From contig JAQBUT010000019.1 of the NCBI GenBank assembly GCA_027623195.1, forward strand, positions 1 to 64,000: DNA of 64,000 bases, read 5' to 3'. The notes below the pieces were generated by a model. It was not told where the DNA came from. It searched no databases and saw only the letters and a program-made list of their open reading frames with translations. Of the stretch, positions 16,224 to 19,526 are shown one piece after another (position 1 is the first letter of the stretch; every line of letters begins with the position of its first letter). The position numbers were made by a program, and so were the translations under genes. Origin of the DNA: Chloroflexota bacterium (lineage in GTDB: Bacteria; Chloroflexota; Dehalococcoidia; Lucifugimonadales; JADFKI01).

Positions 16224-17069
16224 ATGACGACCCAGGGTTACACCAACCCAGACCTGCTTGTGGAGAGCGAATGGCTTGCCGAGCGGCTGGACGATCCGAA
16301 TGTACGCATCGTTGACTGCGATCCCATGGACGTATACCGCCGGGCACACATCAAGAACGCGGTGGGCATACCCGTGCACCACTACATCAAGCAGGTGGAG
16401 TACGACTCCGATGTCAGGAAGTACCCGCTGGTTGCGCCTGCGGACAGGATGAAAGAGATCATGGAGTCCATGGGCATTGGAGACGACACCCTTGTCGTTG
16501 CCTACGACAGCAATGGCTCTCTGTGGGCAGCCAGGCTGTGGTGGACGCTGAACTACTACGGCCACACCAATGTGAAGGTCTTGAACGGCGGCTGGCGAAA
16601 GTGGTTCGACGAAGGACGACCTGTGGAAGATGGCAGCCCAACCATTCCGGCGGTGACATTTACCCCCAACGCCAATCCGGACCTCATATGCACAGTGGAC
16701 TACGGCGTGGCAAGCGTGGGCAATTCGGACGTGCTATTCTTGGACGTTCGCTCGGGCGGCGAGTGGGAAGGTACCAACGCTCGGGGCAACAAGAGGGTTG
16801 GTCGAGTACCAGGCTCAGTTCATCTGGAGTGGCTCAATTTTGTCACAAAGGACAAGTTCCAGACCATAAAGCCAGCTAGCGAACTCCGTGACATGCTGGC
16901 GGCGGCGGGGGTGACACCTGAAAAAGAAGTCGTCACTTATTGACAGGGTGGCATCCGTGCGGCGCACGGTGTGTTCATCCTCCAGCTACTGGGATACCAG
17001 AGGACTCGAAACTACGACGGCTCTATGGGCGAGTGGGCCAACCGCGACGATACGCCGCTGACGGTGTAG
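16224..17069 (+). CDS. Selenocysteine-containing tandem rhodanese / sulfurtransferase (SseA/TST type), read through TGA 16941-16943
   Basis: EVVTY-TGA-QGGIRAAHG...NYDGSMGEW...TAG; the TGA falls at the catalytic Cys of the CxxGxR loop and the C-terminal signature YDGSxxEW lies after it; RBS GAGGTG before ATG 16224. Confidence 0.93.
16951..16974 (+). promoter_or_regulatory. Putative bacterial SECIS
   Basis: CCGTGC(16955-60)-GGC-GCACGG(16964-69); G-initiated loop starting 17 nt after the TGA. Confidence 0.65.
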
Positions 17070-17105
17070 CGGATTTCCGGCAAATTTCTGTGGCGACGAT
17101 AAATT

Positions 17106-17196
17106 TGGCTCCGCAGGTAGTCCGCCGCAGCGTAGAACCTACGACCGATCGGTTAATCCGCCGCGGCGGAATTGCTCTACCGCTGAGCTACTGCGA
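17106..17196 (-). pseudogene. Degenerate tRNA-Asn copy with two 14-nt palindrome substitutions
   Basis: Near-identical to 17204-17278 except that GATTC is replaced by TCCGCCGCAGCGTA (17121-34) and CAGCCG by TCCGCCGCGGCGGA (17157-70). Confidence 0.9.
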
Positions 17197-17203
17197 GAAA
17201 AGT

Positions 17204-17278
17204 TGGCTCCGCAGGTAGGATTCGAACCTACGACCGATCGGTTAACAGCCGATTGCTCTACCACTGAGCTACTGCGGA
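17204..17278 (-). tRNA. tRNA-Asn(GTT)
   Basis: TCCGCAGTAGCTCAGTGGTAGAGCAATCGGCTGTTAACCGATCGGTCGTAGGTTCGAATCCTACCTGCGGAGCCA: complete cloverleaf with encoded CCA. Confidence 0.97.
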
Positions 17279-17377
17279 GCGTGGGTGTGTGAAGGGGATA
17301 TCTTGAAAGAGATATTCCTGCCACGACATATGTTAGCATCGGTGGCCCACGCCTTCAAGCTGATTTTGTCGTAAGGA

Positions 17378-17656
17378 TCAAGAATCAGAGGCAGCCGTGA
17401 TAATGACCGTTCGCAGCCAGTCCCTGTCCGCCCCGGTCTTCAAATAGCGCTCCCTCATCATCGCCTCAGATCTAGTGGCAAACTCCTCACTGTGAAACAA
17501 AACCCAGGGGCCCCTGCCCTTCGTGTAGCTAGACAGTCCTCCATTATGCTCGGAGGCTCGTCTAGGCAAATCCTTGGTCTGACCGGTATAAAGCCCGCCT
17601 GTAGATTCGCTGACAAATACATAAACGTAAAATGTTTCTACTTCTGAAGGGGCCAA
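17378..17656 (-). CDS. Small stand-alone GIY-YIG nuclease (YhbQ/UPF0213-like)
   Basis: FYVYV...LYTGQT..L.RR..EHN.G...YTK...PW.L...E......A..RE..LK; only a TTG start, may be decaying. Confidence 0.88.
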   Translation of the reverse strand: MAPSEVETFYVYVFVSESTGGLYTGQTKDLPRRASEHNGGLSSYTKGRGPWVLFHSEEFATRSEAMMRERYLKTGADRDWLRTVIITAASDS

Positions 17657-17709
17657 GCTGTGAAATCCAACAGAAAGTTAAAGCCTATCCCATTGTAGTA
17701 GTTAGATTA

Positions 17710-17776
17710 CGGTTAATCCGCCGCGGCGGATTTGCTCTACCACTGAGCTACTGCGGGGCCTGGGTGTGTGAAGGGG
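17710..17776 (-). pseudogene. 5'-half tRNA-Asn copy plus leader, with the same palindrome in the anticodon arm
   Basis: CGGTTAA-TCCGCCGCGGCGGA(17717-30)-TTTGCTCTACCACTGAGCTACTGCGG, plus flank TGGGTGTGTGAAGGGG shared with the intact tRNA. Confidence 0.88.
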
Positions 17777-17886
17777 TTATGTTATAAGAGGCTTTACCAG
17801 AGGACTGTATAATAATATCATCCCCTGTGGACAAATAGTAGACAGGTACAACGGAAATTTACACCAAGTAAATTGCTGCCTACAAG

Positions 17887-18282
17887 ATGAAAAACAGCTT
17901 CCCACGTAAGCCGATGAGTATCAGCCGTAGCGCCAGAAGCTTTGGCAACGCACTTCGCGGAATCCGCACTGTGCTGGCGACTCAAGCCAACGCCCTACTG
18001 CACCTGGCAATCGCCGTCGGCGTTGTGGCGCTCGGGCTGTTCTTGGGCATCTCTCTAATGGAATGGGCACTGGTAGCCATCTGCATTTGTTCTGTCCTTG
18101 CTGCGGAGGCCTTCAACACAGCCCTGGAGTTTCTGGCGGACGGGCTGGAACCGGACCACAACCCTCTGGTCGGTCGATCCAAAGACATAGCCGCCGGGGC
18201 CGTGCTGCTAACGTCGATAGGGGCTGTTGTTGTTGGGATGCTAGTCTTTATCCCGCACGTACTGGCGCTGATTTCAGACTAG
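17887..18282 (+). CDS. dgkA: DgkA-family diacylglycerol/undecaprenol kinase
   Basis: SFGNALRG, AEAFNTALE, SKDIAAGAVL. Confidence 0.9.
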   Translation: MKNSFPRKPMSISRSARSFGNALRGIRTVLATQANALLHLAIAVGVVALGLFLGISLMEWALVAICICSVLAAEAFNTALEFLADGLEPDHNPLVGRSKDIAAGAVLLTSIGAVVVGMLVFIPHVLALISD

Positions 18283-18293
18283 ATACCAGACCC

Positions 18294-19526
18294 CTACTGC
18301 AATCGACGTATTCTCGGCATGCCAAGTGCGGCGGCAATGCTTATGGCCGTCAGCATGGAGCCGTTGACCAGCAACGCGGCCGGCGCGCCGAAACTTCCGG
18401 CGATGACCCCCACTCCCAGGTGTCCTATAGGCGCTACGCCTATGCTGAGCACCCAGGAACCCGTGGCGCGGCCTCGCTGCTCATTAGTGACGTTGAGCTG
18501 CATAAGCGTCTTGTATAGCGTGTCCACAATGGAGGCGCATGCGTTGATGAACCCCAAGACGAGAAGGAATACCACCAGGTGCTTGGACCAGAAGAAGGCC
18601 ACTTGGCCCAGGCCGAACCCGGTGGCACTGGCAAACATCAGCCAACCTTTGCGTCTAGTATTAGCCATGAAGGCCAGTAAAAGAAGCCCCAAGGCACCCC
18701 CTCCCTGACGCACCGCCGTTACGAAGCCGAATCCCAGCGGGCCCAGGCCAAGAACATCCTTGCTGTACACAACGAGAACGCTTTGGTGAGTGAAACCGAA
18801 TACCTCTGTAGCGCTGGTCAACAGCATCAGCACCATAAGAGTCCGGTTCTCGCGGAGCAACTGAAAATAGCCAGCCAGGTTGCTCATAACGGACTCCCGC
18901 TCCTTAGGTGCTGCCTGTCCCACATCACGGGCAGCCAGAAGGAAAAGTACCGAGGCTGCATTGGCGGCCCCAATTACGAGGTACTGGACCCCCACACCTG
19001 ACTGGGATACTATCACCCCGGCAACCAGCGATCCTATCACTCCCCCAAATCTCTGCCCCATGGCGTTGAGCGATAAGCCATTGAGGGCTTTTTCCGGCCC
19101 GACGATATCGAAGGTGTAGGAGTGGCGTATGGTCATCACGAACGCCCACATGCAGCCTGTCGCGGCGGCTAACGCAATGACGTACCAGACGTTTTCGACA
19201 CCCGAGAGCAGCATCGCTGCCATGATGAAGGCTATGATGCTTCCGCCTATGGTCACCAATCTCAGAAAAATCCGTCGGTCCACCCTGTCGGTGATTGCCC
19301 CAGACAGTATGCCCAGGAAGAAGAAGGGGGCCATTCGGGCGGCGGCGGATACGCCAACCATAAATGGGGATTCTGTCAGGCTCAGCACAAGCCAGGATAG
19401 AGCCATCTGCTCCATGCCCATCGCCAACGAGTGCAGTAATGTTGCGCCCCACAAAAACCGGAAGTCTCTGTACTGGAATGATGCCGCCCAGGTAGAGTTT
19501 GGTCCTAGAAACGACCTCATCGCCAT
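18294..19526 (-). CDS. MFS transporter (DHA3-like)
   Basis: GAITDRVDRR motif A, about 12 TM segments. Confidence 0.88.
   Translation of the reverse strand: MAMRSFLGPNSTWAASFQYRDFRFLWGATLLHSLAMGMEQMALSWLVLSLTESPFMVGVSAAARMAPFFFLGILSGAITDRVDRRIFLRLVTIGGSIIAFIMAAMLLSGVENVWYVIALAAATGCMWAFVMTIRHSYTFDIVGPEKALNGLSLNAMGQRFGGVIGSLVAGVIVSQSGVGVQYLVIGAANAASVLFLLAARDVGQAAPKERESVMSNLAGYFQLLRENRTLMVLMLLTSATEVFGFTHQSVLVVYSKDVLGLGPLGFGFVTAVRQGGGALGLLLLAFMANTRRKGWLMFASATGFGLGQVAFFWSKHLVVFLLVLGFINACASIVDTLYKTLMQLNVTNEQRGRATGSWVLSIGVAPIGHLGVGVIAGSFGAPAALLVNGSMLTAISIAAALGMPRIRRLQ

Follow-up and report, generated by a model that had tools for sequence, protein, structure and literature searches.

Likely selfish GIY-YIG nuclease cassette with its own hairpin palindrome at the tRNA-Asn gene of a member of the phylum Chloroflexota

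The tRNA-Asn locus of a Chloroflexota genome (G000), contained in the stretch of 64,000 nucleotides analysed here (the window), carries what is likely a selfish cassette. It is composed of a gene for a small GIY-YIG nuclease and its own hairpin palindrome, resembles the Ssn/NTS systems and appears to be docked by tRNA homology, its putative cutting and mobility being deduced by analogy. The directly observed part comprises the anatomy of the locus, a clade- and strand-specific tie of the nuclease to tRNA genes, palindrome types that match the nuclease lineage, tRNA pieces of local origin and replacements of 5–6 nt at sites other than tRNA genes.

The features of the locus are given in Table 1 in minus-strand order. 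Its layout, coordinates and palindromes, and the replacement of CGGCTG and of five T-arm nucleotides, all described in an earlier sequence-only reading, were confirmed. Copy A occupies the former start of the host tRNA-Asn gene, and the replaced CGGCTG (tRNA positions 29–34) includes the wobble base in both copies. The intact tRNA-Asn(GTT), separated from copy B by a spacer of 6 nt, is the sole tRNA-Asn found in the assembly. The predicted fold of copy B is a long hairpin formed by its two palindromes and not a cloverleaf, and its 2-mismatch palindrome differs by one base from the allele that copy A has in the related population described below. The exact 14-mer TCCGCCGCGGCGGA occurs three times in the 3.0-Mb genome, against 0.04 expected occurrences under a 4th-order Markov model.

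Table 1. Features of the tRNA-Asn locus (positions in the window) and non-tRNA sites at which a palindrome replaces host bases
Feature	Position	Strand	Support or detail
Copy A: native leader, tRNA-Asn positions 1–28, palindrome and TTAACCG (7 nt)	17710..17780	-	sequence; leader alignment
Perfect palindrome TCCGCCGCGGCGGA in copy A, in place of CGGCTG (tRNA 29–34)	17717..17730	.	sequence
GIY-YIG nuclease gene, stand-alone, 92 aa, TTG start, Slx1/UPF0213-like	17378..17656	-	Pfam PF01541, E 3.7e-14
Second copy of host leader, preceding the intact tRNA	17279..17301	-	aligned with the leaders of copy A and G002
Intact tRNA-Asn(GTT)	17204..17278	-	tRNA call; predicted fold a cloverleaf
Copy B: patched, near full-length tRNA copy up to the CCA end	17106..17197	-	sequence
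Perfect palindrome TCCGCCGCGGCGGA in copy B, in place of CGGCTG	17157..17170	.	sequence
2-mismatch palindrome in copy B T arm, in place of GAATC	17121..17134	.	sequence
Non-tRNA replacement, L193			19 empty copies with 6 nt in G000
Non-tRNA replacement, L204			(4)
Non-tRNA replacement, G000	C56:28076		AATCCT
Non-tRNA replacement, L215			net +8
Non-tRNA replacement, L202			5 nt replaced, net +9, coding region

The insert is 0.4 kb long and holds one gene only. As the earlier reading had stated, no integrase was detected among the 7 neighbour genes scanned with Pfam, which comprise only metabolic and transport genes. Its claim of a replacement without target duplication holds for the palindromes themselves and needs refinement for the cassette, which is a local duplication of ~70 nt of the leader and the 5' half of the tRNA. 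Integrase-built islands at tRNA genes also keep an intact tRNA, and a partial copy bounds the insert. The present locus differs from them in the lack of an integrase, in the small size of its one-gene insert, in the duplication of 5' halves with the leader and in the palindromes borne by the copies. A promoter scan gave no minus-strand site, and two near-consensus matches seen by eye (about 17834–17806, and ahead of the intact tRNA) are not claimed. On the plus strand of the window, a rhodanese gene (16224–17069) contains an in-frame TGA (16941–16943) at its active-site position, kept in relatives (L003, L007 and L011); this codon is probably a selenocysteine, so that the gene would extend to 17069.

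Contigs of a possible source run cover positions 16500–17232 and 17243–18500 with 0 differences at a depth of 34; they break only within shared tRNA sequence, the assembly being fragmented and no single contig spanning the whole stretch. Copy A, the gene and the tRNA were also present in 4 runs of a second study, with 11 differences across 17203–17830. One contig spans these positions in two of its runs (X3 and X5) and continues into other DNA where copy B would be. That copy B was not found in this related population was judged from contigs running on at 17203, and not from missing cover of 17084–17167 (study P2). The population has a one-base variant of the copy A palindrome at 17725, and its nuclease gene shows 8 differences, 5 of which alter a residue, none at the conserved positions Y12, Y23, G25, R33, H37 and E69. 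In runs X3–X6, at least 3.7 kb of other DNA, possibly an integrated island, follows the 3' end of tRNA-Asn (window 17079–17203). Because both sides match the source-run contigs, and the second study carries the cassette with other DNA at the site of copy B, the cassette is genuine, with copy B as an additional, variable part.

The 92-aa nuclease is an Slx1-like protein of a single domain that retains the active-site residues and has no extra DNA-binding domain. Within an alignment of 40 rows (A1), Y23 and E69 were conserved in 40/40, Y12 in 39/40, and R33 and H37 in 38/40; G25 was conserved too. Foldseek with the predicted model (pLDDT 84.6) placed UPF0213 and Slx1 proteins at ranks 1–13, and UvrC and I-TevI at E values of 0.4–0.6; the best solved relatives in a PDB sequence search were also UPF0213 proteins and Slx1 (PDB 1zg2, 1ywl). 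The score with the group I intron endonuclease model was 13 bits, below the cut-off of 56. With a domain that holds the Tyr, Arg, His and Glu, and a predicted fold nearer to Slx1/UPF0213 than to UvrC or I-TevI, the protein belongs to the GIY-YIG superfamily, in its minimal Slx1-like type. The homologue pool comprised 6547 cluster representatives at E 0.001. Some homologues in alignment A1 (P0017, P0021, P0026, P0034 and P0038) have C-terminal tails of GRAGPPxAD-like sequence, likely translated from a patched tRNA copy and palindrome.

Only 2 homologues were found in the genome, one at the tRNA-Asn locus and one at a tRNA-Ala locus (L097, C61:56591–57073). In this second cassette tRNA-Ala(GGC) immediately precedes the gene; patched copies lie on both sides, the upstream one being a 5' copy, and the palindromes have TCCCG..CGGGA arms (TCCCGA..TCGGGA type), unlike those of the tRNA-Asn locus. 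The downstream palindrome appears to combine the TCCCGA and CCGCC types. Other tRNA duplications of this genome are a tRNA-Gly(CCC) followed at a distance of 600 nt by a degraded copy of its full length, the small gene between the two not being a nuclease (C35:35055–35719), and tRNA-Pro genes with 5' and 3' half copies and no palindromes (C11:3255–3405, C11:16611–18345 and C13:4172–4335).

Empty sites in related genomes, which the earlier reading proposed to look for, do exist: the tRNA-Asn locus is plain in 21 relatives, in 3 of which little upstream flank is visible, and the nuclease part of the locus matched none of 40 relatives. A counterpart of copy A is present in G002, from the same genus (L002), where a patched 5' half of tRNA-Asn ends at the same base as copy A, directly before the tRNA. 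No Asn-linked nuclease was found in G002, whose assembly is 89% complete and whose contig ends within this tRNA. The AT-rich block upstream of copy A is conserved there. The leader duplicated at the present locus differs from the orthologous leader of G002, and the duplication was thus made from local DNA. The same G002 assembly also contains two versions of the tRNA-Ala(GGC) site that share their leader, one plain and one patched (L185 and L210, on C140 and C143), and no nuclease gene follows the patched one.

A search of the whole class gave matches in 194 of 401 genomes. The locus set comprised 138 loci: 102 were among the best-scoring of the 364 class-wide matches, 2 came from G002, and collections of genomes, metagenomes and viruses supplied the other 34; in viral contigs the single protein gave no match and alignment A2 gave 2 loci. 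The best gene per locus was taken for the 137 of 138 loci with an HMM hit, L094 being dropped for lack of one. The tree is a quick one, of 88 columns and with many open forks, and the in-group and out-group counts follow it; a motif rule for the sorting of clades misplaced 7 rows and was discarded in favour of the tree.

One branch (SH-aLRT 98) divides 87 rows, including the query, from 50 rows. A tRNA gene on the same strand within 600 nt was found at 79/87 in-group loci (57 upstream and 22 downstream) and at 2/50 out-group loci; 4 of the 8 in-group loci lacking it lie <300 nt from a contig end. Hairpin replacement in tRNA copies, as detected automatically, occurred at 48/87 versus 0/50 loci, and a typed palindrome at 68/87 versus 7/50. 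The association of nuclease homologues with tRNA genes and palindrome-patched copies, on which the sequence-only reading depended, is therefore strongly borne out by this contrast. Several loci have tandem units. Named hosts include Bacteroidota, Saccharimonadota, Pseudomonadota and Thermodesulfobacteriota, and the closest homologues of the query nuclease are in Bacteroidota, Saccharimonadota and others. L031 and the out-group loci L123–L175 represent a further small GIY-YIG clade with a Cys-x-Asp motif, with TTCGAC.RGCTCA repeats in the flanks (21/50 out-group loci) and with neither SRM nor tRNA; it is likely another enzyme–repeat pair. G000 carries these repeats, and no gene of the Cys-x-Asp type was found in it.

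The palindromes of the in-group clade are 14–20 nt long and have no fixed flank. Five arm types cluster on the nuclease tree, with 10 changes versus 29.5 after shuffling, and among the 24 tRNA-Asn rows with 3 changes versus 7.4; since kin share labels, this result is one of clustering and not of co-evolution. The tRNA type clusters as well (25 changes versus 46.6 shuffled). The CCGCC type is found at Asn, Gln, Val, Arg and Met tRNAs, and tRNA-Asn bears three types. Of the two roles offered for the palindrome by the earlier reading, a recognition site is favoured over a repair scar, because the palindrome type follows the nuclease tree even within the tRNA-Asn loci.

A patch at tRNA positions 29–34 was found at 11 tRNA-Asn loci, with two arm types. 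In 9 of these 11 loci the 3 bases before the palindrome are those of the resident tRNA (AAT, GCG, GAG, AAG, GGG), and one-base differences from the resident tRNA were seen before the palindrome in query copy A, L093 and L120. L054 has a T-arm patch too, with another palindrome. This register is common and not universal, as 0–17 nt are replaced at other loci, in the D loop, anticodon arm or T arm, and copy length varies widely. At Val, Ala and Ile loci a palindrome hairpin of similar length substitutes the entire anticodon arm. No conserved target motif or hairpin register was seen around the replaced bases on inspection by eye.

Dispersed copies of the palindrome YCCGCCNNGGCGGR numbered 0 in G001, 9 in G000 and 28 in G002, with controls of 1, 1 and 4, respectively. 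In G001, from the same genus (86% complete), the tRNA-Asn is plain and no nuclease was detected; G000 is mildly enriched, with 9 copies versus 2.4 expected. Across 53 genomes, the median ratio of count to control in carriers of the matching type versus carriers of other types was 5.7 versus 1.0 (TCCTTC), 3.9 versus 1.4 (CCCGA), 2.8 versus 1.7 (CCGCC) and 2.4 versus 1.65 (GTCGCC), the control being the reversed palindrome, local copies contributing 1–5 per count, the types being defined from the same flanks, the genomes not being phylogenetically independent and those with no nuclease being mostly small members of one order. A 3-fold enrichment was reached by only 5/12 CCGCC carriers and 3/9 GTCGCC carriers. 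The genome-wide count suggested by the sequence-only reading thus gave dispersed palindromes where the system is present in the same-genus series, with exceptions in both directions among the 53 genomes: G400 has 93 CCCGA palindromes and no nuclease match, G168 has 78 TCCTTC copies and another local type, and G387, G399 and G312 are carriers with no enrichment. Counts of YCCCGA..TCGGGR were very high in G004 (55), G091 (939) and G247 (313), G004 having no match to the query protein.

The dispersed sites examined were 32 (30 of the 32 of G002 and 2 of G000). Other hairpin repeats harbour 17/32 of them, versus a background of 9%; one composite insert is common to about 11 of the 30 sites examined in G002, which are non-independent, and 4 are chance coding matches. 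This composite insert, of about 45 nt and with the palindrome first, lies inside a TTCGAC-type repeat and has been multiplied with it (G002 L191, L194, L200, L201, L206–L209 and L211–L213). At 5 non-tRNA sites with an empty counterpart (Table 1), most dispersed sites having no alignable one, the palindrome replaces 5–6 nt with no duplication, so that the footprint of the tRNA copies is not confined to tRNA. The counterparts in G001 and G002 of the G000 palindromes on C41 and C33 are related sequences that are themselves palindromic in part, and gave no clean empty site, the G000 palindromes on C40, C51, C20 and C3 being outside the comparison. Another, at C47:76784, lies within a sequence that, by eye, we take to be 23S rRNA.

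Among known systems, Ssn with its NTS/SRM repeats is closer than RAYT/REP, which the earlier reading had taken as the nearest logic. SsnA (cd10448; PMC11893778) is also encoded by a single-domain GIY-YIG gene of ~90 aa, <150 aa, flanked by hairpin repeats that are dispersed in the genome, with different enzyme–repeat pairs and conserved Tyr, Tyr and Glu. In contrast, the SRM pattern is absent near the query and at 86/87 in-group loci (1/87, versus 10/50 out-group loci), and the query falls outside a 21-row clade (SH-aLRT 99) that holds the SRM-flanked genes and is termed Ssn-like from its SRM matches, SsnA itself not being in the tree. The query system is moreover docked in tRNA duplicates and its palindromes replace target bases, whereas the word "tRNA" occurs 0 times in the main text of PMC11893778.

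REPtrons (RAYT and REP; PMC3733652) likewise consist of an enzyme gene flanked by its own small palindromes, which match a genome-wide family; the query palindrome is dispersed as well, weakly in G000 itself. The query enzyme is a GIY-YIG protein and not a tyrosine (IS200-type) transposase, only its gene lies between the copies, neither a GTAG nor a CGTC tag was seen and the docking is at tRNA. SegB of phages T4 and T6 (PMC2330249, PMC13096335) is a GIY-YIG gene among tRNA genes, linked to the duplication of tRNA segments, but it is phage-borne and cuts double-stranded DNA at a 27-bp site, and patched tRNA copies or palindromes are not described in the available text of those papers, whereas the query protein is chromosomal and Slx1-like. 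The I-TevI-type domain and the further DNA-binding part of Seg-type homing endonucleases are absent from the single domain of the query. Slx1-like/UPF0213 minimal proteins (PDB entries as above; PMC1564403), the best sequence and fold matches, also have a minimal domain with no auxiliary parts; they have a predicted DNA-repair role, and the accessible part of that paper gives no link to tRNA genes or palindromes. The query system works like Ssn/SRM and REPtrons and belongs to neither, nor to the Seg-type homing endonucleases.

SsnA binds its hairpin NTS as single-stranded DNA and nicks nearby (PMC11893778). By analogy, the cognate palindrome, folded as a hairpin of single-stranded DNA, would be the recognition target of the query enzyme; a nick next to it would free an end, which host repair would then insert at another site. 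A freed end in which tRNA arms flank the palindrome could pair with a resident tRNA gene. Exchange in the 5' arm would give a patched copy, the gene and an intact tRNA, as in the query layout, and exchange in the 3' arm an intact tRNA, the gene and a patched copy; in either case one working tRNA would always survive. Repeated rounds may have produced tandem units and extra patched copies such as copy B, and a bare palindrome, when moved, would overwrite about 6 nt at other, often hairpin-forming sites. We propose only tentatively the stronger form of this model, in which a nuclease of ~90 residues alone drives a new class of minimal mobile DNA, writing a lineage-specific palindrome of 14–20 nt with no duplication and using the flanking tRNA arms as homology guides into tRNA genes across phyla.

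It is unlikely that the cassette is a homing-type element like SegB of phage T4, with a nuclease that cuts intact tRNA genes and a palindrome that serves as an immunity patch or is a repair scar copied during break repair. The tie to tRNA genes, the clustering of tRNA types on the tree and the tandem units are consistent with such an element, and SegB recognises a T-arm motif of tRNA and amplifies tRNA segments (PMC2330249, PMC13096335). However, an intact tRNA adjoins the gene in 79/87 loci, the palindrome type tracks the enzyme and not the tRNA, non-tRNA sites are also overwritten, and the protein lacks an additional DNA-binding domain and is nearer to Slx1 than to I-TevI.

Equally improbable is a nuclease that recognises the palindrome and does not move it, acting as a domesticated filter of single-stranded DNA or repair factor, while host recombination or another enzyme spreads the palindromes and duplicates the tRNA. 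This would agree with the role of SsnA in modulating transformation, its mobility being only hypothesised (PMC11893778), with the existence of palindrome-rich genomes lacking a matching gene and with the many G002 copies carried in other repeat families. It fits poorly with the patchy distribution among close relatives (0/40 match the gene), the occurrence of the closest homologues in other phyla, the use of several docking tRNAs per genome and the lineage-matched genome-wide enrichment.

The patched copies might instead act as RNA, either as guides directing the nuclease towards tRNA genes or as decoys against anticodon nucleases, and this seems very doubtful. Copy A follows the native upstream region, and is thus probably transcribed, the AT-rich block is kept in G002, and the anticodon-arm swaps at Val, Ala and Ile loci preserve a hairpin of similar length. 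On the other hand, copy B is predicted not to fold as a tRNA, no copy B was seen behind the tRNA of the related population, the position of the patch and the length of the copies differ greatly between loci, and SsnA does not bind RNA (PMC11893778). The locus can hardly be explained by an error of assembly, or by an ordinary integration scar that decayed by chance, despite the fragmented assembly, given that independent contigs cover both junction sets with 0 differences, that the cassette recurs in a second study, that the exact palindromes far exceed expectation and that dozens of genomes share the same layout; the artefact reading is refuted for copy A, the gene and the tRNA.

In open-licence PMC and bioRxiv papers we found no account of minimal GIY-YIG genes that are docked at tRNA and accompanied by overwriting palindromes, and the supplements of the Ssn paper may list such loci. 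New here are the contrast between clades, the genome counts matched by type, the series of 0, 9 and 28 copies within one genus and the footprint of 5–6 nt at non-tRNA sites. The origin and multiplication of very short bacterial palindromes are explained only for RAYT-linked REPs, and mobility is hypothetical for the Ssn repeats. The clade, with matched enzyme–palindrome pairs, both occupied and empty sites and a footprint defined as 5–6 replaced nucleotides, makes the question of palindrome spread testable. If the proposed selfish reading is true, these cassettes would rank with the smallest elements able to spread themselves. They would also give rise to in-frame insertions and tRNA pseudogenes, and their enzymes would form a new group of small nucleases with sequence specificity.
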